NCBI GenBank assembly: GCA_963792415.1
Contig: CAWBVY010000006.1
Coordinates: 192,001 to 256,000, forward strand
DNA from: Candidatus Deferrimicrobiaceae bacterium
GTDB taxonomy: Bacteria; Desulfobacterota; Deferrimicrobia; Deferrimicrobiales; Deferrimicrobiaceae
Length of the DNA: 64,000 nt
Direction: 5' to 3'
Shown here: piece by piece, positions 1-11,650 of the stretch
How the letters are laid out: every line of letters starts with the position of its first letter
Position numbering within the stretch: the first letter of the stretch is position 1
Made by a program: the position numbers and the translations under genes
Notes under the pieces: generated by a model
Database searches by the model: none
What the model saw: only the letters and a program-made list of their open reading frames with translations
What the model was told of the DNA's origin: nothing

Positions 1-2
1 CG

Positions 3-3000
3 ATGGACCGGGAAGACCTCGAGATCACCGACCTCCCGGGCCTTCCCGCCCTGCAGCAGATGATGCTGGACGGGACGATGCGGAAGCCGAAAGGGGTCGC
101 GCTCGTACAGGCGGACCGGCAGGGAAGGACGGTCGCCGACTACGAGGAGGCGTTCCGGGGAGAGTCCGTCCAGGCGGCCGACCCGGCGGACCGGAAATTC
201 GTCGACGTGCGGATGGCGGGCGACATCGCGGTGGTCACGCTCACCCGTCCGGATGCGCTCAACGCATTGAGCGAGGAGCTCCTTGCGCAGTTCGCCGCCG
301 TCGTCCGCGAAGCGGGGACCCTCGGCACGATCGGCGGCCGGACCGTCAAGGCGATCGTCCTCACCGGTGCCGGCCGCGCGTTCGTCGCCGGCGCGGACGT
401 CAAGGAGTTCCACGGGAAAACCGCCGACGTCGTCGACGCCTTGGCGTGGAAGAACATCTCCGTCTTCACGGAACTCGAAAACCTGCCCCTCCCCGTCGTG
501 GCCCTGGTCGACGGGTTCGCGCTCGGTGGCGGCAACGAGCTCGCGATGAGCGCGCATTACCGGATCGTGACCGAGAACGCCCTCCTCGGGCAGCCGGAGG
601 TGAAACTCGGGATCATCCCGGGGTACGGCGGAATGCAGCGCCTCCCCCGCCTGATCGGTCCGCGCAAAGCGGCGGAGATCTGCGTCAACGGGGAACCGGT
701 GGACGGCGGCACCGCCGTGGCGCTCGGGTGGGCCGACGAATTCGTCCCCTCCTCCGCGGCACTGAAGCGCGCGGTCGCCGCGGCGCGCGAATTCGCCGCC
801 GGCGGGCGCCCCGTGCCTCGCCGCGACTGGAACGCCCTGGCCGCCGGCGGGAAGGAAGAGCTGTCGCTCCTCCTCGCCCGCCCGGAAGTCCGTGCCATCC
901 TCGACGCGCCGACACCGGAAAAGGAGTCCGCGGGAAATCTGCGCGCGGCGCGCCTCGCGGCCGCGAGGGACGCACTGCTGGCGATGCGGCACGGTTTCGA
1001 GCATGGGTTCGATGAGGGGTTGCGCAACGACGCCCGGAAGTTCGGCGCCGTCGCCGCCTCGCCCGGCGGCCAGGAATGGGTGGGCCGCTTCCTCGCGAAG
1101 GACGCCGCCCAATCGTCGTTCCTGACGCTCCTCCCCCCGGGCGAGCCGGTCGGAGAGAGGCGGCCCCCGATCACGAAGAAGGCCCCGGGCGACCGCCCCA
1201 TCTCCTTCGTCGAGATCCGGGAGATCGCGGCGATCCTCAAGGAAAAGATCTCCTCCGGCGGCGTGACCTCCCTGCCGAAAAAGATCCTTGGCGACCTGGT
1301 TTCGCTCCTCAAGGACCGCCCGGCTCCCGCGATCCTGGCGGAGATCGACCCGGAACGATCCGGAGCCGTCGGCCCCCGGATCGCCTCGCTCCTCCAGAGG
1401 GGGAAGATCTCCGTGCGGGTGGTCGACCTCGGAGCGGACGAAGGGTTCCGCCGTGAAAACGCCCGGCCGACGTGCGAAGTCCTGCTCGTGGAGAAGAACG
1501 GGGAGGTCCTCTGGGAGGGGAAGAAGCGGTTCCGTAGCGAACCGGGGGCGTTCCCGCGCGTATTTCTCCCGAAGGCCTTCCTCGAGCGGAACGTCGCCCG
1601 CCCCAACGTCGTGTACCAGGCGATCGTCCACCCGATCCTCGAATACGTGTTCGGCTACCCGCACATGATCGCGGTCCTCTGCGAGTCGGGGTACAACGCG
1701 ACCCCCCGTGAAGGGGCCGGAAGCCTGAGCGACCTGAACCGGTACATCGCCGAAGGGGCCGGGAAGGACCGCGACTTCCCCTACTTCGACCGGATCCTCG
1801 TGGACGTCTACGAGCCGGAAGATTTCAGGAAGGAGGACCTGGCCAACTTTTTCAACGGCGACGAGGCGAAGGTCGGGGCCGTCCTTGCGCGGGCGCGGGA
1901 GATGGGGATCCGGTACCGTGAACGGGTCGCGGAGATCCGGGAGAGGGTGCGGGGAGAGATCGCAGCGGAACAGGTCGTCGCGGGGCGCGCGGCCCTCGAC
2001 GAGGGAGACGCCGAGCGGGCGCTTCACCTCCTCCGCAACCTGGTCCTCTCATCGGAAACGCCGTCGCCGCACCGGGAAGCGGCGGCGGACGCGATCGCCG
2101 TGGCCATCCGTTCCTACGCCCTCGGAGCCGATCCCGCGTTCGAGGGAGTGACCGTCGCCGACGGCGGGGTGGCCGTGGAAAGTTGGGCGGGCCCGCGGGC
2201 TCGCGATCTTTCCCGGCTGCTCTCCCTCGCCCTGTCCCTCGCACGAACCCCCGCCGGGAATGGTCCAAGGATCGGGGAATCGGTCGCGGACGGACCCGTC
2301 CCCCGCGTCGTCCACGTCGTCGGGGAACTCGAGCGACCCTCCGGGAAGTTCATCGACGGGAACGACGGCCTGCACTGGGTGTTCGAGAAGGGGTTCGTTC
2401 TCCGCCTTCTGTCCGGGATGGCCGAGGGAACCCTGGACGACGGGATTCCCGCGCTCCTCGCGTGCCGCCTCCTGAGGGACGCCTCCTTCCCGGACGAGAG
2501 ACTCTCGATCGAGCGGCAGTTCTCCGCCGCCGTCAAGGGGACCCTCGAGGCGTACCGCTTCTACCAGTCGCTCCCGGACGGGACGCGGAAGCAGATGGCG
2601 GAAACGTACGCGCGGCATCCCCCGGCCGACCCGCTTTTCCGTCTTTTCGCCTCGCTGGAGACGGAGGGGAATCCCGCACGCGCCAGCCACATGATCCGCA
2701 GCATGACGGCCCGAACCCACTCCTATCGGCACGTCCGGTACCCGGACACCGCCCTCGCGGGAAAGGTGGTCGTGATCACCGGGGGCGGCACGGGGATGGG
2801 ACGCAGCCTCGCCCTCGAGGCGGCGCGGCGCGGTGGAAACGTCGTCATCACCGGCCGGCGGCACGAACCGCTCCTGGAAACGAAGGCCGACATGGACGAC
2901 CTCATCCGCCACCTCGGTCTCACGAACCAGACCCTCTTCGTGCAGGGCGATGTGTCCGATCCGAAATACGTCGGGGACATGTTCGAGCGGATCGAGGTGG

Positions 3001-6000
3001 AGTTCGGCCGCATCGACGTTCTGTACAACAACGCCGGCGTCTCGGGCCCGGTGGTGTTCGGCTCCGCGTACGAGGAGGGCCATTTCGACGAGTACCGGGA
3101 GGCGGTCAACGTCCACCTCACCGGTTCCTGGATGGCGTCGCTCGAGGCGGCAAGGATCATGGAGGGGCAGCCGGGCGGCGGGACGATCGTCATGGTGGGA
3201 ACCTTCTACAGCGAGAGCATCCACCACCACGTCCTGCACGCCTACCCCGGTCGCCTCCCGTACACCTCCGCGCAGTCCGCCAAACTCGCCCTCGGGGATT
3301 ACCTCGCGTGGGCGCTCGCGGGAAAAACGATCACCGTGCTCTCCCTGAACCCGTCGGCGGTCTCCACGGAGCGGATCCAGCGGGGAAGCGGCGTCTTCGA
3401 CAAGGGATCGAAGGCGCGCGCCCGCATCGGTCGCAACGTCCCCCCGGAGGCGCTGGAGCGGGACACCCTCGAACGGACGGTGGGGCACGCCTTCGTCGAT
3501 CCCCGGGACTTCGCCGCCCTCGCGCTCGAGGTCGTCGAAGGGCCGTTCCGGAGGACGATCGGCGGGGTCCGTCTCCCGATGGGCGGCGTCACCTACGAGC
3601 AGCCGCCCGGCGTCTTCCCCTCCCCCGCCGCGCTCTCGCGGTATCCCGACCTGGTCGGCAAGGTCGCGCTGGTCATCGTCGCGGAAGCGCTGTCGGGCGA
3701 CGTTCCCCTGATCGAGTCGTCCGCGGCCGCGCTTGCGAGGTCCGGCGCCGACGTGATCCTCTCCGGCGGCCGGCCCGAAATCCTCGAGCCGGTCGCCCTG
3801 AAGATCAACGCGCGTGGCGGGGAAGGAACCGCCACGGTCTCCCCCGTCAACCTCTCCCACCCCGCCCAGGTGCAGGAACTGTTCGACAGCCTGCCGCGTA
3901 TCGACGCCCTCCTGTATTTCACCGGGAGCGTGGACTGGAAACGACCGCTGACGAACCTGCCGCACGACGAATGGACCGCGCGCGTCGACCGTTTCGGCTT
4001 GATCCCCCGGTTCCTCTGCTGGCAGGCGGAGCGGCGGATGGACCGGGACGGGACGGACGGGACCATCGTCCTGGTGGGACCGGATCTCTCCGGTGTCCCG
4101 ACGATCCGGGAGCGGAACCTCGTGCAGGTCTTCCAGGCGATGCTGCGCCCGGCGGTGGCGACCGAAGCCATGGAACGCGCGCTGATGCGAAAGGCGAACA
4201 CCGAAGGGACCGCGCCCGGCCCCGTGGCGAACGTGAATATCGGGCTCGTTCTTCCGGGTCGCACCGACGGGAGGAACCGGCAGGCCCGCCCCGAAGCGAC
4301 CGCCGCCTCCGTCCTCTGGTTCCTCGACGAAGGCAAGCGCGTCTCGGGGGCGGTTCTCCTGCCCGACGAGCAGAACGCGGTCGCTTCCCTGCCCCCCGAC
4401 CCGGTGGAAGTTCCGGGTACGGCATCGGGAAAGGTGGCCGTCGTAACGGGGGGAACCCGCAACCTCGGGAAGGAGATCTCCCTTCGGCTGGCGGCGGAGA
4501 AGGCGACGGTCATTATCGGAAGCCGGTATCCGCCGACGGGATCGCGGGATCCCGTGGAGGCCGAAAAGGCGCATGGGGAGTTCGCGGAGGCCGACGCTTT
4601 CCTGACGCGCATGCGACATTCCGGCGGACGCGCCGTGTGGGTGCACACGGACGTCACGATGCCCAGGAAAGTGCGTGCGTTGCTTCTTGAGGCACGAAAC
4701 CGGTTCGGCCGCATCGACCTGCTGGTGAACAACGCCGGCGCGGGCGGAAACTTCTCGCGGGTCGGGGAAGTGATGCGGGATCACCGCGACAATTTTACCG
4801 CGGTCCTCGCCGCGAACTTTCTGGGGCCCTGGGAGGCGGTCGTCGCCGCGCGGGAGATATTGCGTACCCAACCTCGCGGGGGCTCGATCGTCAACGTCTC
4901 GACCCATTACGCCGATCACCCGTACCTCTTCCGGACGATCTACACGGTGTCGAAAATTCTCTTGAAGGCGCTGTCAAAGGCCGCGCGCGGGGATCTGGCG
5001 GCCGACGGAATCTCCGTCACCGACGTCGCGCCGACGCTCATCGCCGGCCCGCGGATGGAGTGGGTGATGCGGAACTACGCCACGAAGTTCTCCGGCGGGT
5101 TCGACGATTTCCCGGACCTTTCCCCCGCCGTGCGCAAGGTTCTCACGGATCTTTTCCTCCGTTCCTTCGACGGCGCCCTGCCCGCGGGGGAGCGGGAAAC
5201 GGCCTCGACATCGTTCCTCGCCGCCCTCCGGGCCCGGAAGATGCCGAAAGAAGCGCGCGAACGGATCGAGTCGTGGTACCGGCGGATCGGTGAATGGTTC
5301 CGCTGCACGGTTCCCGCGGCCCCGCCCGGGAACGGGGAGGTGGCGGAGGCGGTGCTGTTCGCCGCCAAGGACGGGCGTTTCCTCGAAAATCCGTTCCTCT
5401 CGATCACCACCCTCCCCCCCTTCTCCTCGTTCCCGCCGTCGCCGGGGGCCAGGAAGGTCCTCTCCGGCGGCGAACCGGGCACGATCGTGTCCACCGGAGT
5501 CGCCGAGGCGGCGCACCGCCGCCTGCACGAGGCGCTCTCCGGGAAGGGGACCGCGCTGACGTCGCTGTCGGACGCCGGCTTGCCCGAGGGGCAGGCGCGG
5601 ATCGGCCGACCTTCCGGGCAGGCACCCGGACAAGGCGCCCGGGGCCGCGCGCAGGAGACGCAGCAGCGCACCCTCGACCTGTCCGATCCCCGCGTCGTCG
5701 AGCCGTGGCTCGACAACGCGCTCGTCGGCGGGCCGCCACCGACGTTCGTCGTTCTGATCGTCGGTCCCAGGGCGGGGGAAAAAGGGGTCCTCGACGGGAC
5801 CGGGGAAGATCGCCGGCAGTTCCTCGAAAGCGTCAAAAAAACCGTCACCCTGTTCGCCGAGTCCGCGCGCGCGGTGCGCGACGGTGGTCACCTCGTCGTC
5901 GTCGGGCCTCCGGAAACGACGGGAGAGGGGCAACTGATGCTGGCCGCGTTGCGGCAGACCGTCCGGACCTTCCTCGCCGAGCAGCACTTCCTCCCCGCGG

Positions 6001-6140
6001 CGAAAACCGTTCGCGTCTCCCTACTCGCCGGGCGCGGCCCTGGGGCGGAGCGGGAGACGGAGCGCGAGGTACTCGCGATCCTCGAAGGGGCGCAGCCCCC
6101 TCGTGTCGAACCTCTCCCGGTGGGGTACCCCCGCCCTTAG
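3..6140 (+). CDS. Giant multidomain acyl-CoA enzyme, probably 5'-partial: MDR/enoyl-CoA reductase-like C-terminal tail + enoyl-CoA hydratase + unknown insert + four SDR domains (malonyl-CoA reductase-like)
   Basis: Crotonase motifs AFVAGADVKE and GFALGGGNELA...GQPEVKLGIIPGYGG. SDR motifs TGGGTGMG/NNAGVSG/YPGRLPY (~2750-3600) and TGGTRNLG/NNAGAGG/YLFRTIYTVSK (~4420-5400), each followed by a degenerate Rossmann fold. Confidence 0.85.
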   Translation: MDREDLEITDLPGLPALQQMMLDGTMRKPKGVALVQADRQGRTVADYEEAFRGESVQAADPADRKFVDVRMAGDIAVVTLTRPDALNALSEELLAQFAAVVREAGTLGTIGGRTVKAIVLTGAGRAFVAGADVKEFHGKTADVVDALAWKNISVFTELENLPLPVVALVDGFALGGGNELAMSAHYRIVTENALLGQPEVKLGIIPGYGGMQRLPRLIGPRKAAEICVNGEPVDGGTAVALGWADEFVPSSAALKRAVAAAREFAAGGRPVPRRDWNALAAGGKEELSLLLARPEVRAILDAPTPEKESAGNLRAARLAAARDALLAMRHGFEHGFDEGLRNDARKFGAVAASPGGQEWVGRFLAKDAAQSSFLTLLPPGEPVGERRPPITKKAPGDRPISFVEIREIAAILKEKISSGGVTSLPKKILGDLVSLLKDRPAPAILAEIDPERSGAVGPRIASLLQRGKISVRVVDLGADEGFRRENARPTCEVLLVEKNGEVLWEGKKRFRSEPGAFPRVFLPKAFLERNVARPNVVYQAIVHPILEYVFGYPHMIAVLCESGYNATPREGAGSLSDLNRYIAEGAGKDRDFPYFDRILVDVYEPEDFRKEDLANFFNGDEAKVGAVLARAREMGIRYRERVAEIRERVRGEIAAEQVVAGRAALDEGDAERALHLLRNLVLSSETPSPHREAAADAIAVAIRSYALGADPAFEGVTVADGGVAVESWAGPRARDLSRLLSLALSLARTPAGNGPRIGESVADGPVPRVVHVVGELERPSGKFIDGNDGLHWVFEKGFVLRLLSGMAEGTLDDGIPALLACRLLRDASFPDERLSIERQFSAAVKGTLEAYRFYQSLPDGTRKQMAETYARHPPADPLFRLFASLETEGNPARASHMIRSMTARTHSYRHVRYPDTALAGKVVVITGGGTGMGRSLALEAARRGGNVVITGRRHEPLLETKADMDDLIRHLGLTNQTLFVQGDVSDPKYVGDMFERIEVEFGRIDVLYNNAGVSGPVVFGSAYEEGHFDEYREAVNVHLTGSWMASLEAARIMEGQPGGGTIVMVGTFYSESIHHHVLHAYPGRLPYTSAQSAKLALGDYLAWALAGKTITVLSLNPSAVSTERIQRGSGVFDKGSKARARIGRNVPPEALERDTLERTVGHAFVDPRDFAALALEVVEGPFRRTIGGVRLPMGGVTYEQPPGVFPSPAALSRYPDLVGKVALVIVAEALSGDVPLIESSAAALARSGADVILSGGRPEILEPVALKINARGGEGTATVSPVNLSHPAQVQELFDSLPRIDALLYFTGSVDWKRPLTNLPHDEWTARVDRFGLIPRFLCWQAERRMDRDGTDGTIVLVGPDLSGVPTIRERNLVQVFQAMLRPAVATEAMERALMRKANTEGTAPGPVANVNIGLVLPGRTDGRNRQARPEATAASVLWFLDEGKRVSGAVLLPDEQNAVASLPPDPVEVPGTASGKVAVVTGGTRNLGKEISLRLAAEKATVIIGSRYPPTGSRDPVEAEKAHGEFAEADAFLTRMRHSGGRAVWVHTDVTMPRKVRALLLEARNRFGRIDLLVNNAGAGGNFSRVGEVMRDHRDNFTAVLAANFLGPWEAVVAAREILRTQPRGGSIVNVSTHYADHPYLFRTIYTVSKILLKALSKAARGDLAADGISVTDVAPTLIAGPRMEWVMRNYATKFSGGFDDFPDLSPAVRKVLTDLFLRSFDGALPAGERETASTSFLAALRARKMPKEARERIESWYRRIGEWFRCTVPAAPPGNGEVAEAVLFAAKDGRFLENPFLSITTLPPFSSFPPSPGARKVLSGGEPGTIVSTGVAEAAHRRLHEALSGKGTALTSLSDAGLPEGQARIGRPSGQAPGQGARGRAQETQQRTLDLSDPRVVEPWLDNALVGGPPPTFVVLIVGPRAGEKGVLDGTGEDRRQFLESVKKTVTLFAESARAVRDGGHLVVVGPPETTGEGQLMLAALRQTVRTFLAEQHFLPAAKTVRVSLLAGRGPGAERETEREVLAILEGAQPPRVEPLPVGYPRP

Positions 6141-6141
6141 G

Positions 6142-7095
6142 TCAGACGTGGTTCCGCAGCATCAGTTCCACGGGGTGCGGGTTCAGGAACACCTGCCGGG
6201 CGAGGTAGGCAACGTCGTACTTGCGGACGTAATGACGGATCAGGGTGACGGGGACGACCAGCGGGACGAGCCGAAGGCGGTACTGGTTGATGACCTCTAT
6301 CATCTCCTGTTTTTCAGCACTTGACAGCATCTTCCTGAAGTATCCCATCATATGCGACAAGACGTCGGCGCACTTCTTCGGCGTCGCCTTGTGCGCCAGC
6401 GCCGCCATGAAGATCTCCTCGTATCTTGAATAGAGTGTCCCGAGGGGAAGGGTCTTCGCACCGGCGACAAGTCGACCCATCTCCTCGTAGTGCCCCCGGT
6501 CGTGGGAGAGAAGGAGGAGTTTGTGGTCCGTGTGGAAATCCACGAGCGCCCCGCGGGAGAGGGGGCGGGCGAGCAGGTCGCGGAAGCGCCGAAGGCAGAA
6601 GACCCGCTCGACGAACATCTCCCGTAGCACCGGGTCGGTAAGACGCCCCTCCTCCTCTACCGGGATCCTCGGGAATCGCTCCAGAAACATCCGGGTGAAG
6701 ACCCCGGCTCCCGTCCGCGCCGGGATTCCGTCGCCGGCCCCGTACACCTTCACCCGCTCCATTCCGGAACTCGGGGAATCCTTTTTGCAGATGTAACCGC
6801 ACAGGTCCAGGCCGGACAGTTCTTCCAGGCGGGCCTTTGCCCACCGCTCCATCTTTTCCGTGTGATCGACCCCGGTCCTGTTCGTGACCAGGCGCGGGTG
6901 GATCGGATCCCCTACGAGTCGCATCGCCTCGCGCGGGACGGGAAGCCCGCAGTCGACCTCCGGGCAGACCCGCACCCACTCGACAAAGGGGCCCAGCGTC
7001 TCGTTCAGGAAGAGGTCCCGCTTGTGCCCGCCGTCGTAGCGTACCTTCTCCCCCAGAAGACAGGCGCTGACGAGGACCTTGATCCGTTCCGTCAT
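6142..7095 (-). CDS. DUF523/DUF1722 (YbgA/RudS-like, thiouracil desulfidase-related) protein
   Basis: N-terminal VSACLLGEKVRYDGGHK, VCPEV and SPSSG motifs; C-terminal YbgA-like FHTDHKLLLLSH...HMMGYF...YLARQVFLNPHP. Confidence 0.85.
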   Translation of the reverse strand: MTERIKVLVSACLLGEKVRYDGGHKRDLFLNETLGPFVEWVRVCPEVDCGLPVPREAMRLVGDPIHPRLVTNRTGVDHTEKMERWAKARLEELSGLDLCGYICKKDSPSSGMERVKVYGAGDGIPARTGAGVFTRMFLERFPRIPVEEEGRLTDPVLREMFVERVFCLRRFRDLLARPLSRGALVDFHTDHKLLLLSHDRGHYEEMGRLVAGAKTLPLGTLYSRYEEIFMAALAHKATPKKCADVLSHMMGYFRKMLSSAEKQEMIEVINQYRLRLVPLVVPVTLIRHYVRKYDVAYLARQVFLNPHPVELMLRNHV

Positions 7096-7817
7096 TTTTC
7101 CACTCCCGCATCCGCTCCAAGGTAGGCGGCCCGGACCTTCGGATCCTCCCTCAGGTCGGACGCCTTCCCCTCGAGGGCGATCTCCCCCGCCTCGAGGACG
7201 TAGGCGCGGTCCGCGATGGCGAGGGCCATGGAGGCGTTCTGTTCGACGAGGAGGATCGTCGTTCCCGCCTTGTTGATCTCCCCGATCATCCGGAAGATCT
7301 CGCTCACCAGCACGGGGGACAATCCCATGGACGGCTCGTCGAGAAGGAGCAGGTCGGGCCGCTGGACGAGGCCCCTCCCGATGGCCAGCATCTGCTGCTC
7401 CCCTCCGGACAAGGTCCCGGCAAGCTGGCGCGTGCGTTCGGCCAGGCGGGGGAAAAGACCGAAGACCCGTTCAAAGCTCTCCTCCATCTCTTTTCCGGAG
7501 GAGCGGGTGTACCCCCCCATCTCGAGGTTCTCCCGGACGCTCATGTTGGCGAAGACGCCGCGACCCTCAGGGACATGAGCGATCCCCAGGCGCGCGATCC
7601 GATGGGACGGGAGACCCGCGATCGATTTCCCGTCGTGTGCGATGCTCCCCGCTTCGGTACGGACGACGCCGGAGATTGCCCGAAGGATGGTGCTTTTCCC
7701 TGCCCCGTTCGCACCGATCAGGGTGACGATCTCCCCTTTTCCGACGATGAAGGACACATTGCGGATCGCCTGGACCGATCCGTAATAAACGCTTATAGAA
7801 TCCACGTTTAACAGCAT
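7092..7817 (-). CDS. livF: Branched-chain amino acid ABC transporter ATP-binding protein
   Basis: Walker A GANGAGKST, HVPEGRGVF, LSGGEQQMLA, LLLDEPSMGL. Confidence 0.93.
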   Translation of the reverse strand: MLLNVDSISVYYGSVQAIRNVSFIVGKGEIVTLIGANGAGKSTILRAISGVVRTEAGSIAHDGKSIAGLPSHRIARLGIAHVPEGRGVFANMSVRENLEMGGYTRSSGKEMEESFERVFGLFPRLAERTRQLAGTLSGGEQQMLAIGRGLVQRPDLLLLDEPSMGLSPVLVSEIFRMIGEINKAGTTILLVEQNASMALAIADRAYVLEAGEIALEGKASDLREDPKVRAAYLGADAGVEK

Positions 7818-7833
7818 TCTGTCACCATATTTC

Positions 7834-8622
7834 TTATTTCTTATCTCTTGTCGCAGTCGTATCGTCCCTTTTCCCGAGGTACGCCTCGACCACCTTCGGA
7901 TTCCTCCGGATCTCCGCGGGAAGACCCCGGGCGATCACCTGTCCGAAGTCCATCACGATCAGCCGTTCACAGATCCCCATCACCAGGCGCATCTGGTGCT
8001 CGATCAGCAAAACGGTCAAGGAGAAGCGTTCCCGGATCCGGAGGATGAACTCCATCAGCGTGCCCACCTCGGAGGGGTTCATCCCCGCCGCGGGCTCGTC
8101 CAGGAGGAGGATCTTCGGGCGCGATGCGAGCGCGCGGGCGATCTCCAGTTTTCGCTGGTCGCCGTACGGGAGGTTCCTGGCGAGCTCCTTCCCGCGACCC
8201 TGGAGGGAAAAGATCGAAAGAAATTCCTCCGCCTCTTCCCGTGTCCGCCTCTCCTCCCGGTAGAACGCCCCGGTCCGGAGAAGCGCCGCGGCGGCCCCGT
8301 ACCGGACGTGCGAGTGGTGAGCGATCCGCACGTTGTCGACGACCGTCAGCTCCGGGAAGAGGCGGATGTTCTGAAAGGTCCGCGCGATCCCGCGGCGGGA
8401 GATCTGGTCCGACGGGAGCCCCGTGATCTCACCCCCCTCCAGCGAGACGGCGCCGCGGTCGGGGCCGTAGATGCCTGTGATGACGTTGAACAACGTGGTC
8501 TTTCCGGAACCGTTGGGGCCGATGATCCCCACGAGCTCGCCCCGCCCGAGGCGGAAATCGACCCCGTCGAGGGCCTTGATCCCCCCGAAGTGCCGGGTAA
8601 GCCCCTGGACCTCGAGGATCAC
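7834..8622 (-). CDS. livG: Branched-chain amino acid ABC transporter ATP-binding protein
   Basis: GPNGSGKTT, ARTFQNIRLF, LPYGDQRKLEIARALA, LLLDEPAAG; GTG start at 8622 overlaps the livM stop (GTGA). Confidence 0.92.
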   Translation of the reverse strand: MILEVQGLTRHFGGIKALDGVDFRLGRGELVGIIGPNGSGKTTLFNVITGIYGPDRGAVSLEGGEITGLPSDQISRRGIARTFQNIRLFPELTVVDNVRIAHHSHVRYGAAAALLRTGAFYREERRTREEAEEFLSIFSLQGRGKELARNLPYGDQRKLEIARALASRPKILLLDEPAAGMNPSEVGTLMEFILRIRERFSLTVLLIEHQMRLVMGICERLIVMDFGQVIARGLPAEIRRNPKVVEAYLGKRDDTTATRDKK

Positions 8623-9608
8623 CGGTACACCTTGCTCCGCAGGAACGGGAACTCCCGCACGCCGAACAGTCCCCTCGGCCGCACCAGCATGGTGACGATC
8701 AGCAGCAGGGGGATGAGGACCCAGCGGAACTCGATGTATTCGGGCGGGAGCGCGACGCGCATCCCCTCCAGCAGGAAGACCCAGGCGAAGGAGGCGACCA
8801 GCGTCCCGGTCAGGTTTCCCAACCCCCCGAGAACGACGATCATCAGCACGTCGAACGATTTCAGGAAATCGAAGGTGCTCGGGTGCAGAAACGTGTAAAG
8901 GTGCGCGTACAGTCCCCCCGCCACGCCGGCGAAGGCGCACCCGGCGGTGAAGCCGATCACCTTGTACCGGAACGTGTCGATCCCCAGCGCCGCGGCGGCG
9001 ACCTCGTCTTCCCGGATGGCGACGAGTGCGCGCCCGTAGGTGGAGTGGACGAGGTTGCGGATCACCAGGATCGCCGCGACGAGCCCGGCGACGGCCCAGG
9101 GGATTCCGGTCAGCCGCGCGATGCCGGTCATCCCGCGGGCGCCCCCCAGTTGCGGCAGGAAGGAGTCCGCGTTGTCGAAGAGGACCTTCATGATGACCCC
9201 GAACCCGAGCGTCGCGATGCCGAGGTAATCCGACGTCAGGCGGAGAGTGGGCAGGCCGACGGCGCACGCAAGGAGCGCGGCGGCAAAACCGCCGGCCAGA
9301 AGGGAACCGAGGAACACCGCCCCCGTCGCGAAGACCGCCTCGTCTCCGTACGCTCCCACGTAGAGTTTCGTCAGCAGCGCCGCCGTGTACGCCCCCACGC
9401 CGTAGAAGGCGGCGTGTCCCAGGGAGAACAGCCCCGTGAACCCGTAGATGAGGTTCAGGCCCAGCGCGGAGATCGCCACGACGCACGCGAGCTGGAAAAT
9501 CTGCACCCAGTACGGGTTCAGGATGTCGCGGGCGGAGAGGAACTGGAGCAGGCCGGAGAGGACGGCGAAGGGCAGGACCGCCTTGGCAATGTTCTTCAGG
9601 AAGGGCAT
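8619..9608 (-). CDS. livM: Branched-chain amino acid ABC transporter permease
   Basis: GFTGLFSLGHAAFYGVGAY, LRLTSDYLGIATLGF, GRALVAIREDEVAA; many TM segments. Confidence 0.92.
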   Translation of the reverse strand: MPFLKNIAKAVLPFAVLSGLLQFLSARDILNPYWVQIFQLACVVAISALGLNLIYGFTGLFSLGHAAFYGVGAYTAALLTKLYVGAYGDEAVFATGAVFLGSLLAGGFAAALLACAVGLPTLRLTSDYLGIATLGFGVIMKVLFDNADSFLPQLGGARGMTGIARLTGIPWAVAGLVAAILVIRNLVHSTYGRALVAIREDEVAAAALGIDTFRYKVIGFTAGCAFAGVAGGLYAHLYTFLHPSTFDFLKSFDVLMIVVLGGLGNLTGTLVASFAWVFLLEGMRVALPPEYIEFRWVLIPLLLIVTMLVRPRGLFGVREFPFLRSKVYR

Positions 9609-9618
9609 CGTCCCGCCG

Positions 9619-10503
9619 TCACACCTTTTCCGTCCGGGCCTTCCCGAGGATCCCGGTGGGCTTCCACAACAGCACGGCGATGAGGAGGACGAAGGCGATC
9701 CCGTCCCGGTAGGTGGACGACAGATACGCCGTGGTCATCGTCTCCGTTTCCCCCATGATCAGCGCCCCGAGGACCGCCCCCGGGATGGACCCGATTCCGC
9801 CGAGGACGGCGGCGGTGAACGCCTTCAGGCCGGGCATCACCCCCATGAAGGTGTTGATCTGGGGATAGGCGATCCCGTAGAGCACTCCCCCGACACCCGC
9901 GAGCGCCGCCCCGAGGCCGAAGGTGAAGGAGATCACGCCGTTCACGTTGACTCCCATCAGCCCGGCGGTGACGATGTCGTGGGAGACGGCGCGCATCCCC
10001 CGCCCCACCTTCGTCCGGTAGACGACATATTGCAGCGCCCCCAGGGAAGCGAGCGTGACGCCGAGGATGACCCCCTGGATGTTGGTGACCGTGATCCCGC
10101 CGATCTCGAGGGACACCACCTGGAAGGGACGCGGGAAGGCGTAATAGTTCGGCCCGAAGACCTGGTGGAGGGCGGTGAAATATTCCAGAAACAGGGAGAC
10201 GCCGATGGCGGTGATCAGCGCCGCGATCTTCGGGGCGTGCCGCAGCGGCCGGTACGCCATCCGCTCGATGACGATCGCGAGGATGGCGGACCCGCCCGCG
10301 GCGATCGCGAACACGGCGGGGAGCGGAAGGTGATATTTCTCGACGGAGTAGAACGCCAGGAACGCCCCGACCATGAAGACGTCGCCGTGGGCGAAGTTGA
10401 TGAGGCGCACGATGCCGTACACCATCGTGTACCCCAGCGCGATCAGGGCGTACACGAACCCGAGTTGTAGGCCGTTCAGCGCCTGCTGGAGAAAATATTC
10501 TAC
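9619..10503 (-). CDS. livH: Branched-chain amino acid ABC transporter permease (start uncertain)
   Basis: EYFLQQALNGLQLGFVYALIALGYTMVYGIVRLINFAHGD, KAFTAAVLGGIGS; conserved N-terminus extends upstream of the GTG at 10455. Confidence 0.9.
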   Translation of the reverse strand, partial: VEYFLQQALNGLQLGFVYALIALGYTMVYGIVRLINFAHGDVFMVGAFLAFYSVEKYHLPLPAVFAIAAGGSAILAIVIERMAYRPLRHAPKIAALITAIGVSLFLEYFTALHQVFGPNYYAFPRPFQVVSLEIGGITVTNIQGVILGVTLASLGALQYVVYRTKVGRGMRAVSHDIVTAGLMGVNVNGVISFTFGLGAALAGVGGVLYGIAYPQINTFMGVMPGLKAFTAAVLGGIGSIPGAVLGALIMGETETMTTAYLSSTYRDGIAFVLLIAVLLWKPTGILGKARTEKV

Positions 10504-10513
10504 GGTTCCACCC

Positions 10514-11650
10514 CTATGGGTTCACCATCTTCACGAATTTCTGCTTGCCGCCCTCGATCTTGAGGATTGCGGCGCTCTTGATCATGTCGCCGTTCGCATC
10601 CAGCGTCGACTTTCCGGAAACCGCCTTGAAGTCCTTTATCGAGGCCAGGGCATCGCGGATCTTCCTCGGGTCGTCGCTCCCGGCCTTGCGGATCGCCTCG
10701 AGGAGAATGTTCGTAGCGTCGTACGCAAGCGTCCCCAGGGCATCGGGGACCTGTCCGTGCTTCTTCCTGTACTTTTCCACCCACGCCGCCACTTCCGGCC
10801 GGCGGTCGTCCGGGGAGTAGTGGTTGGAGAAGTAGCCGCCTTCGATCGCGCTTCCGGCGATCTTCACCAGATCCGGGGAGTCCCACCCGTCCGGCCCGAC
10901 CAGCCGGACCTTGAGCCCCTTCTCCTGGACCTGCTTCGCGATCAGGCCGACCTTGTTGTAGTAGTCCGGCAGGAAGAGGATGTCGGCGCCGGAGGCTTTC
11001 ACCTTCGTCAGGAGTGCCGAGAAGTCGACGTCGTCCTTGCCGTACGAATCGAAGGCGGCCACCTTTCCGCCCTGCTTCCGGAAAGCGTCGCGGAACACCT
11101 CGGCGATCCCCTTCGAGTAGTCGTTCGACGCGTCGAACAGCACCGCGGCGCTCTTCCCCTTCAGGGTTTCGCGGGAGAACTTCGCCATCACGGCCCCCTG
11201 GAACGGATCGATGAAGCAGGCGCGGAACATGTAGTCTTTCCGCTTCCCGTCCGCCACCGTCACCTTCGGGTTCGTCGCCGTGGGCGATATCGCTGGAATC
11301 CTCGCCGACTGGATGATGTCGGAAACCGGGATCGTGGTCTTCGATGTGACCGATCCGACGATCGCCTTCACGCGCTGCTGGTTCACGAGGAGGTTCGCCA
11401 CGTTCGCCGCCTCCGTGGCGTCGTTCTTGTCGTCCTGGATGGCGTAGGTGATCTTCATCCCCGCGACGCCGCCCCTGGCGTTCGCCTCCTCGACGGCGAT
11501 GAGGAAGGAGTTGCGGACCGACTCGCCGAACGTCTTGACGTCGCCGGAAAGCGGCGTGATGAGGCCGATCTTGATCTCTTTCGCGTGGGAGGGGACGACC
11601 GCCACCAGGGGCGTAAAAAGAATGGCGAGAAGAAGGGATGCGCGCTTCAT
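10514..11650 (-). CDS. Branched-chain amino acid ABC transporter substrate-binding protein (LivK/LivJ family)
   Basis: Signal peptide; IKIGLITPLSG, SPTATNPKVT, FRACFIDPFQG, DFSALLTKVK; first gene of the liv operon. Confidence 0.92.
   Translation of the reverse strand: MKRASLLLAILFTPLVAVVPSHAKEIKIGLITPLSGDVKTFGESVRNSFLIAVEEANARGGVAGMKITYAIQDDKNDATEAANVANLLVNQQRVKAIVGSVTSKTTIPVSDIIQSARIPAISPTATNPKVTVADGKRKDYMFRACFIDPFQGAVMAKFSRETLKGKSAAVLFDASNDYSKGIAEVFRDAFRKQGGKVAAFDSYGKDDVDFSALLTKVKASGADILFLPDYYNKVGLIAKQVQEKGLKVRLVGPDGWDSPDLVKIAGSAIEGGYFSNHYSPDDRRPEVAAWVEKYRKKHGQVPDALGTLAYDATNILLEAIRKAGSDDPRKIRDALASIKDFKAVSGKSTLDANGDMIKSAAILKIEGGKQKFVKMVNP

Follow-up and report, generated by a model that had tools for sequence, protein, structure and literature searches.

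A candidate multi-enzyme with propionyl-CoA synthase-like and malonyl-CoA reductase-like modules in a Candidatus Deferrimicrobiaceae bacterium

At the beginning of a 64,000-nucleotide stretch of contig CAWBVY010000006.1 from a Candidatus Deferrimicrobiaceae bacterium (G000:C6:192001-256000, hereafter the window) lies one very long reading frame, and the question raised by this locus is whether its product could lead from malonyl-CoA to propionyl-CoA on a single polypeptide. The initial annotation had proposed a chain of ligase, reductase, dehydratase and malonyl-CoA reductase (MCR), serving acetate/CO2 assimilation or running in reverse for propionate oxidation. Based on sequence comparisons and structure models, we assume with a probability of roughly 0.6 that the gene encodes a multi-enzyme of 2582 residues which carries four of the five activities of the 3-hydroxypropionate (3-HP) route from malonyl-CoA to propionyl-CoA. 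The earlier idea is partly supported; its ligase and its reverse direction are not.

The frame covers positions 3-6140 of the window (+ strand) with 2045 uninterrupted codons and a stop codon at 6138-6140. Upstream of the window it remains open as far as a stop codon ending at C6:190286, and its first ATG is found at C6:190392, 1,609 bases before window position 1, just after GGAGGATTCCGAC and preceded by a GGAGGA box. The complete product from this ATG (P0002) comprises 2582 residues, 537 of which lie upstream of the window frame; the frame of at least 2045 residues claimed initially proved to be real. The same length was determined for 21 of the first 24 homologues listed, while 33 of the 100 listed homologues comprise 2528-2647 residues at a query coverage of 98-100%. 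Since the homologues share length and coverage, the start and the length of the gene are well supported. In their source records the homologues are named only 'SDR family NAD(P)-dependent oxidoreductase' or 'enoyl-CoA hydratase', and they originate from Candidatus Deferrimicrobium, Deferrimicrobiaceae or 'Deltaproteobacteria' metagenome-assembled genomes (MAGs). An assembly artefact or a frameshift was ruled out, since in 16 of the 27 carrier genomes of the class described below the match lies within a frame of 2491-2657 residues.

Along the 2582 residues, the domain order is an enoyl-CoA reductase of the propionyl-CoA synthase (PCS) type (ER), a crotonase (ECH), a domain termed MID, and four folds of the short-chain dehydrogenase/reductase (SDR) type, designated SDR-A to SDR-D (Table 1). 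Pfam assigned ADH_N to residues 62-157, ADH_zinc_N to 209-320 and ECH_1/ECH_2 to 611-804 of the complete protein, with adh_short/KR matches from residues 1460 and 2014; in the window frame alone, adh_short was matched in three stretches.

The best PDB sequence match of the whole chain is the 1850-residue chain 6eqo (E 5.4e-49), labeled in the PDB search only as 'Acetyl-coenzyme A synthetase', which we take to be the PCS of Erythrobacter sp. NAP1, presumably with the domain order ligase-dehydratase-reductase. Residues 23-498 of the ER align to 6eqo 1246-1735 including an insert of about 200 residues, whereas the alignments of the ER to crotonyl-CoA carboxylase/reductases (CCRs) end at about residue 349 and do not contain this insert. 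The first ~55 residues of the window frame had been read as the tail of an enoyl-CoA reductase, which was confirmed by the two ADH domains upstream and by the match of the ER core to the CCR 4gi2 (E 1.2e-35, compared to 9.2e-21 for 6eqo). The crotonase and its helical tail (residues 611-904) align to 6eqo 905-1203. ECH_1 was matched with an E-value of 2.3e-41 in the window frame and 2.9e-41 in the complete protein, and a further match was 5zai, '3-hydroxypropionyl-coenzyme A dehydratase' (E 1.9e-34). As initially noted, the crotonase is intact with both catalytic Glu residues, GGGNE (E716) at window 525-539 and GQPE (E736) at 588-599, and both align with Glu residues of 6eqo.

Among the 100 listed proteins (1420-4519 residues), the sole matches from outside the family are P0101 and P0102 (E 6e-50 and 6.6e-42), whose JGI name, acrylyl-CoA reductase/3-HP-CoA dehydratase/3-HP-CoA synthetase, denotes a trifunctional PCS. 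Because the crotonase and the reductase both align to 6eqo, the reductase across the insert, both N-terminal domains are PCS-like, in agreement with the initial suggestion, with the reductase placed first and the ligase missing. No AMP-binding (PF00501) or other ligase domain was found by Pfam at E <= 1 in the 2582-residue protein. Of the chain proposed at first, the reductase, the dehydratase and the MCR-like block were recovered and the ligase was not; likewise, of the two domains expected upstream in the same frame, ADH_zinc_N is present and AMP-binding is not. The actual chain runs reductase-dehydratase-MID-MCR-like block, and neither the 520-residue MID nor the swapped order of the MCR halves had been part of the earlier proposal.

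The four-SDR block was examined in an AlphaFold2 model of the last 1143 residues (m215e6edc8868, pLDDT 77.6). The model contains four Rossmann-type units, which agrees with the four tandem SDR folds recognized before. Only two of them carry a glycine-rich NADP motif, TGGGTGMG in SDR-A (window 2778-2801) and TGGTRNLG in SDR-C (4446-4469); SDR-B and SDR-D possess no cofactor motif, like SDR4 and SDR2 of MCR. For MCR, four tandem SDR domains are described, two of them cofactor-binding (PMC10470521). The YxxRxxY motifs pointed out in the initial annotation are located in the same two units, YPGRLPY at window 3243-3263 (SDR-A) and YLFRTIY at 4923-4943 (SDR-C), and the Y, R and Y of both are invariant in 24 family members with 58-90% identity.

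A comparison of the model with the PDB by Foldseek strengthened the suggested MCR-likeness, since ranks 1-24 and 26 are all MCR entries. Full-length MCRs lead with E-values of 3.9e-37 and 1.1e-30 (Chloroflexus, Roseiflexus) and 2.0e-27; structures of MCR halves come next (about 1e-17), and the first single SDRs appear at about 1e-11. The TMt values amount to 0.66-0.68 for the N-terminal MCR structures (SDR1-2) and 0.51-0.58 for the C-terminal ones. When shorter relatives of the block were sought by homology, only pieces of proteins from this same family came up, and canonical MCRs were not reached.

With HMMER, SDR-A (P0002 1456-1669) aligns to residues 571-780 of the Chloroflexus MCR (8hjw) and 583-790 of the Roseiflexus MCR (8hi4), which is the aldehyde-forming SDR3, while SDR-C (P0002 2009-2227) aligns to 8hjw 5-214 and 8hi4 8-216, the alcohol-forming SDR1. 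From these pairings it follows that the two halves are arranged in the opposite order to MCR. The order found here is that of the reactions, with the aldehyde-forming unit first.

In the Roseiflexus MCR, the YxxRxxY motifs are described as substrate-binding (PMC10470521). According to the same description, SDR1 has a Thr165-Tyr178-Lys182 triad and binds malonate semialdehyde through Tyr172, Arg175 and Arg215; the site of SDR3 consists of Ser731-Tyr749-Lys753 and the pair Tyr743-Arg746, further Arg785 and Arg799 of an extra domain and Arg1164 of SDR4, and the exchange K753A abolishes the activity (PMC10470521). Compared to 8hjw and 8hi4, SDR-C has kept equivalents of all six residues of the SDR1 site (T2171, Y2178, R2181, Y2184, K2188 and R2221), all of them invariant in 24 sequences, and also carries NNAG. 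SDR-A carries, besides its glycine-rich motif, GRR, NNAG, T1604, Y1618-x-x-R1621-x-x-Y1624, Q1628 and K1631. T1604 (at the position of Ser731), Y1618, R1621, Y1624 and R1661 (aligned with Arg785) are invariant in the 24 sequences, and R1676 lies at the spacing of Arg799 by manual counting, outside any alignment; no counterpart of Arg1164 was identified.

Based on these assignments, the following sequence of reactions is proposed. SDR-A, backed by the pseudo-SDR SDR-B, would convert malonyl-CoA, with NADPH as reductant, into malonate semialdehyde and CoA, and SDR-C, backed by the pseudo-SDR SDR-D, would reduce malonate semialdehyde with NADPH to 3-HP. The free 3-HP would be re-activated to 3-hydroxypropionyl-CoA by a separate enzyme, for which the ADP-forming synthetase encoded at G000:C7:198818-200914 (-) is the likeliest candidate. 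The crotonase would then dehydrate 3-hydroxypropionyl-CoA to acryloyl-CoA, and the N-terminal PCS-type reductase would convert acryloyl-CoA with NADPH to propionyl-CoA. MID is taken to be a scaffold joining the two halves and may close a chamber around the reactive intermediates. Since neither the chain nor the flanking genes provide a ligase, on present evidence the 2582-residue chain alone cannot complete the conversion of malonyl-CoA to propionyl-CoA. The reverse operation for propionate oxidation is unlikely: the thermodynamics of the acryloyl-CoA/propionyl-CoA couple disfavor a reversal by an NADPH-dependent MDR-type enoyl-CoA reductase, and this direction was rejected on such general grounds, not by calculation.

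A number of observations weigh against the proposed function. In SDR-A, Gln1628 occupies the position of Lys753 of MCR (Tyr+4) while Lys1631 is found at Tyr+7, both being invariant or nearly so; the stretch containing the two residues mirrors the ...SKAGQ... of MCR. The equivalent of the extra domain comprises only about 50 residues compared to about 150 in MCR and has a pLDDT below 50, as have residues 110-136, 166-184 and 217-304 of the model segment, which lie around the substrate side of SDR-A. The cofactor half of SDR-A scores higher against the generic SDR 4dyv (78 bits, residues 17-170) than against SDR3 of MCR (47 bits). Foldseek E-values favor long multi-domain targets, and the unrelated tandem SDR 2et6 reaches 9.3e-16 (TMt 0.45), near the MCR halves. 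None of the 25 best NCBIfam families attains its curated cut-off, and all of them bear generic SDR or hydratase names. Moreover, the candidate ligase is located on another contig of the window genome and occurs in 35 of 41 genomes of the class, 10 of them among the 14 that lack the megaenzyme. Finally, seven POR_N matches in the genome indicate that another route from acetyl-CoA to C3/C4 compounds exists.

Part of these observations would fit a multi-domain acyl-CoA-reducing enzyme acting on another substrate, in which the likeness to MCR and PCS reflects shared fold ancestry and not shared substrates. Examples would be a CoA-linked ketoreductase-dehydratase-enoylreductase chain elongation together with an acyl-CoA-to-alcohol reductase, or a route via methylmalonyl-CoA or succinyl-CoA. 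The generic NCBIfam matches below cut-off, the cofactor half of SDR-A, the displaced lysine of the SDR3 triad and the much shorter extra domain point in this direction, as does an ER core nearer to CCR than to 6eqo and a Liv-type branched-chain amino-acid ABC system as conserved downstream neighbor. On the other hand, the invariant YxxRxxY motif of both catalytic SDRs binds the carboxylate of malonyl-CoA or malonate semialdehyde in MCR, and all six residues of the malonate-semialdehyde site are kept. Two successive sites of this kind fit the reduction of a thioester via an aldehyde to an alcohol on a carboxylated C3 unit, the ER contains the PCS-specific insert, and MCR structures outrank all other PDB entries. 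Altogether, a different substrate is considered unlikely, although it deserves consideration.

Table 1. Domains of the multi-enzyme and their positions in the window
Feature	Window positions	Strand	Basis
ER, C-terminal end	1..71	+	P0002 residues 1 to ~560; ADH_N, ADH_zinc_N, 4gi2, 6eqo
Crotonase with helical tail, proposed 3-hydroxypropionyl-CoA dehydratase	189..1106	+	P0002 residues ~600-905; ECH_1, 6eqo, 5zai
MID, orphan domain of ~520 residues, mostly helical	1176..2741	+	P0002 residues ~929-1450
SDR-A, catalytic, like MCR SDR3 (proposed malonyl-CoA -> malonate semialdehyde)	2757..3611	+	Aligned to 8hjw, 8hi4
SDR-B, pseudo-SDR like MCR SDR4	3663..4388	+	Secondary structure of the model, pLDDT mostly 85-95; no TGxxxGxG
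SDR-C, catalytic, like MCR SDR1 (proposed malonate semialdehyde -> 3-hydroxypropionate)	4416..5408	+	Aligned to 8hjw, 8hi4
SDR-D, C-terminal pseudo-SDR like MCR SDR2, with stop codon	5475..6140	+	Secondary structure of the model; no cofactor motif

The domain between the two halves resembles none of the families compared. MID showed no Pfam match and no PDB sequence match below an E-value of 0.66. Searched exhaustively with HMMER, 1.84 billion representatives gave 20 matches. Most of the 17 stronger ones (E 2e-226 to 1.2e-08) belong to this family as complete or fragmentary members; the other three are weak and lead to other proteins (E 5.5e-8 to 3.1e-4). For three of the weakest (P0115, P0118 and P0119), Pfam returned only one sub-threshold TPR. 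The giant public-metagenome proteins P0119 (4263 residues) and P0120 (5277 residues) weakly resemble the first ~240 residues of MID (E 1.5e-6 and 3.1e-4), and Pfam recognizes no family in P0119. Twenty-four members with 43-90% identity to the query in this region share about 90 invariant columns in their alignment, and the AlphaFold2 model built from it is mainly helical (pLDDT 81, pTM 0.74). Foldseek found nothing in the PDB better than E 0.15, with TM values below 0.2, and among the language-model look-alikes of a protein atlas only TPR/NucS_C clusters appeared (0.79, non-significant). The invariant KKAPGDRP opens MID and, in relatives with two genes, the product of the second gene. Judged from its model and its conservation, MID is a folded domain outside the families compared, with no link to ligases or CoA-transferases.

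If MID itself were a new 3-HP-activating enzyme, either a CoA ligase or a CoA transferase, all five steps would reside on one polypeptide, a nanoreactor leading to propionyl-CoA, or to methylmalonyl-CoA in case the CCR-like reductase carboxylates. In favor of this reading, MID is joined to the N-terminal side of the MCR-like unit in every case, including the two-gene form, folds confidently, and has many charged residues (Arg, His, Asp, Glu) among its invariant ones; furthermore, there is no ligase gene beside the megaenzyme in the window genome or in L015, and the external candidate is not specific to carriers. However, MID shows no likeness in sequence or fold to ligases, ATP-grasp proteins, CoA-transferases or any other Pfam or PDB family, its look-alikes are the non-significant TPR/NucS_C clusters, and its mostly helical model is what would be expected of a scaffold. 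In addition, a gene resembling ADP-forming hydroxyacid-CoA ligases is syntenic in six relatives. An activating MID is improbable in our view, and the assignment of the 3-HP activation to a separate enzyme is retained.

This gene in the relatives encodes an ADP-forming acyl-CoA synthetase located a few kb upstream of the megaenzyme on the opposite strand (L008, L009, L011, L013, L018 and L021). The orthologues share 73-80% identity among the loci and the domains CoA_binding_2 / Succ_CoA_lig / ATP-grasp_5. The synteny is thus seen in other genera and is lacking in the window genome. The synthetase of the window genome (also L033:7815-9914) shows 73.5% identity; its own neighbors, an enoyl-CoA hydratase, a radical SAM gene and a SerA-like dehydrogenase, are uninformative. 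Its best PDB matches are the 4-hydroxybutyrate-CoA ligase 8wzu (E 1.1e-121) and the 3-hydroxypropionate-CoA ligase 9y43 (E 4.2e-103) of Nitrosopumilus maritimus, both ADP-forming, followed by ADP-forming acyl-CoA/acetyl-CoA synthetases at about 3e-83. A dedicated partner of the megaenzyme was rejected, since the synthetase is spread through the class irrespective of the megaenzyme. Based on its sequence, it is a reasonable candidate for the activation of 3-HP, the best one available, and not carrier-specific. No AMP-binding or ligase gene was found among the flanking genes in the window genome, and in L015, the one same-genus locus examined, there is none beside the megaenzyme gene.

The fate of propionyl-CoA was considered in the genome sequence (2.84 Mb, 11 contigs, estimated completeness 100). 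The initial annotation had suggested looking for acetyl/propionyl-CoA carboxylase and methylmalonyl-CoA mutase (MCM), and matches to both were found: there are AccA/AccD-type matches and a cluster of a carboxyltransferase of the propionyl-CoA carboxylase (PCC) type, biotin carboxylase and MCM, with a second mutase besides. This cluster would take propionyl-CoA to succinyl-CoA. The sum of the steps would be acetyl-CoA + 2 bicarbonate -> succinyl-CoA, and it would serve co-assimilation or anaplerosis, not a closed autotrophic cycle. In the 2.84 Mb no isocitrate lyase and no match to the HpcH/malyl-CoA-lyase family was found, and the full 3-HP bi-cycle was rejected for these 2.84 Mb because of the missing HpcH/malyl-CoA-lyase match. 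The simplest interpretation is a linear reductive segment from acetyl-CoA via malonyl-CoA and propionyl-CoA to succinyl-CoA which serves co-assimilation; a closed autotrophic cycle is less likely.

Such a cycle would be of the 3-hydroxypropionate/4-hydroxybutyrate type, with 4-hydroxybutyryl-CoA dehydratase and beta-oxidation enzymes regenerating acetyl-CoA. The genome does encode a close homologue of this dehydratase (G000:C1:320439-321917 (-), L032:9436-10917; PDB 1u8v with E 7.2e-144, N. maritimus 6vjr with E 7.6e-135) beside an aldehyde dehydrogenase (ALDH) resembling succinate-semialdehyde/lactaldehyde dehydrogenases, the synthetase is closest to thaumarchaeal 4-hydroxybutyrate- and 3-HP-CoA ligases, and PCC-type and MCM genes are present. 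Nevertheless, the dehydratase orthologue (E <= 1e-170) occurs in only 13 of the 27 megaenzyme carriers and in 4 of the 14 non-carriers of the class; a tight linkage of the two was rejected on these counts. The dehydratase neighbors, an Urt/Liv-type ABC transporter, an SDR and the ALDH, look catabolic, and neither a succinyl-CoA reductase nor a succinate-semialdehyde reductase was identified in the genome. In the published genome analysis, a heterotrophic metabolism and an oxidative TCA cycle are predicted (PMC9386147). A closed cycle around the megaenzyme is therefore regarded as very improbable, and the linear segment remains the preferred interpretation.

The distribution of the gene was determined by means of MID. 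Of 401 sampled genomes of the phylum, 10 contain MID, and all 10 belong to one class. Within this class (Candidatus Deferrimicrobium relatives), 27 of 41 sampled genomes carry it, including 13 of the 14 of the genus to which the window belongs. The frame is of the fused size (2491-2657 residues) in 16 of these carriers and of the split size (1682-1977 residues) in 8, the remaining 3 being cut by a contig end or ambiguous. Sixteen loci of relatives from named MAG records were compared. In all 12 loci showing both regions, ER-ECH is situated directly upstream of MID and the four SDRs; in three of them (L008, L015 and L018) both are in frame with no stops, and in nine they form separate frames, with the second start codon overlapping the stop of the first gene or following it directly. 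The split form consists of two translationally coupled genes. The initial annotation had named stops splitting the frame in relatives as evidence against the fusion: the fused size predominates among the carriers, and in those nine loci the frame is split into coupled genes.

One locus encodes MID and the four SDRs (L010:2723-5869), and the 10 kb before them contain no ER-ECH; a fusion of U32 peptidase and UbiE methyltransferase and a type III polyketide synthase are encoded upstream. It may represent another use of the MCR-like unit. In L008 (15102-17474), L013, L016 and L018, CydA and CydB of a cytochrome bd oxidase directly follow the megaenzyme gene on the same strand, and they are absent from the corresponding position in the window genome.

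Upstream neighbors in the window genome are coaE (same strand), SCP2 and Sir2. A GC-rich hairpin of 15 pairs lies just after coaE (L001:11730-11763, G000:C6:189730-189763), and between it and the megaenzyme start extend about 630 bases with no convincing gene. An open reading frame (ORF) of 133 residues in this gap shows a low third-position GC of 0.68 and no Pfam match. In the 5' intergenic region Rfam gave only a sub-threshold sRNA match, and a scan for promoters and terminators found nothing at the 3' end of the megaenzyme gene. Further upstream, an ORF of 1420 residues (L001:5248-9510 (-), G000:C6:183248-187510) has a high third-position GC and no Pfam match; it adjoins PilW- and GspH-like pseudopilin genes and may be pilus-associated. 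On the other side, a convergent 2-thiouracil desulfurase/DUF1722 gene (window 6142-7095 (-)) abuts the megaenzyme stop codon and is followed by the operon of the Liv-type ABC system (7092-11650 (-)), comprising two ATPases, two permeases and a Peripla_BP_6 binding protein. Within it, the permease ORF at 8619-9608 and a frame of 550 residues at 7834-9486 overlap, which makes a later true start of the 550-residue frame probable.

Data on expression come from three metatranscriptomic libraries, whose contigs cover 30, 21 and 29 of the 30 bins of the 9-kb gene region; one contig spans the ECH-MID junction. The libraries represent three coded studies of the same year and habitat, in which DNA may be present, and contigs as such cannot show transcripts; they give only a weak hint of expression.

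No published description of an MCR-PCS fusion was found in literature searches on Deferrimicrobium, MBNT15, MCR and PCS; the supplements of PMC9802188 and PMC9386147 might list hits for the lineage. In a survey of carbon fixation in 52,515 MAGs, neither 'MBNT15' nor 'Desulfobacterota' occurs in the main text (PMC9802188), and the genome analysis of MBNT15/Deferrimicrobiota reports that key enzymes of the 3-hydroxypropionate pathway are lacking (PMC9386147). If the proposed function holds true, a reductive 3-HP segment would be placed in the candidate phylum MBNT15/Deferrimicrobiota, a widespread lineage of sediments and wetlands, and two reactive intermediates, malonate semialdehyde and acryloyl-CoA, would be handled on one scaffold. 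Should MID after all activate 3-HP, the uncultured Deferrimicrobium lineage would possess a CO2-assimilating route which published genome analyses declared absent. The family also illustrates the origin of a megaenzyme, as the modules are two translationally coupled genes in sister genera and one gene here. It might further provide a compact part for engineered 3-HP or propionyl-CoA pathways, and the conserved MID with no relatives is a structural puzzle in its own right.

Compared to known systems, the protein is a new architecture of known modules, joining parts of two carbon-fixation enzymes known as separate proteins: a reductase and a dehydratase of the PCS type, the orphan MID, and an MCR-like block with exchanged halves. 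With PCS it shares the crotonase with helical tail and, on one chain with it, the MDR-type enoyl-CoA reductase with its insert of about 200 residues, in PCS a second nucleotide-binding-like segment; of all PDB chains, PCS also matches the whole protein best in sequence. In contrast to PCS, it has no AMP-forming ligase domain, the reductase (residues 1-560) precedes the dehydratase (600-905) whereas 6eqo has its crotonase (905-1203) ahead of its reductase (1246-1735), and the family is fused or coupled to an MCR-like unit. The ER core aligns best to CCRs (4gi2, 4y0k, 3krt and 6owe), including the GYET and NxN stretches; unlike these, the ER has the PCS-like insert and sits in a megaenzyme.

The MCRs of C. 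aurantiacus, R. castenholzii and Porphyrobacter dokdonensis (8hjw, 8hi4 and 6k8v/6k8s) are the best structural matches in the PDB for the C-terminal block, with an identity of only 16-20% in the Foldseek alignments. Both possess four tandem SDR folds in which catalytic and non-catalytic units alternate, YxxRxxY and NADP-type motifs in both catalytic units, and a complete malonate-semialdehyde site. They differ in the order of the halves, with the aldehyde-forming unit first in the present protein, in the lysine of the SDR3-type unit, displaced here by three residues, and in the size of the extra domain (about 50 compared to about 150 residues). Whereas MCR is a stand-alone enzyme of ~1220 residues, the block described here is embedded in proteins of 1668 or 2582 residues and, in the sequences seen, always accompanied by MID and often also by ER-ECH. 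The ADP-forming 3-HP- and 4-hydroxybutyrate-CoA synthetases of N. maritimus (9y43 and 8wzu), finally, are the best solved relatives of the candidate ligase and share its domain architecture; the candidate differs in being a separate gene, widespread in the class, whose substrate is predicted.

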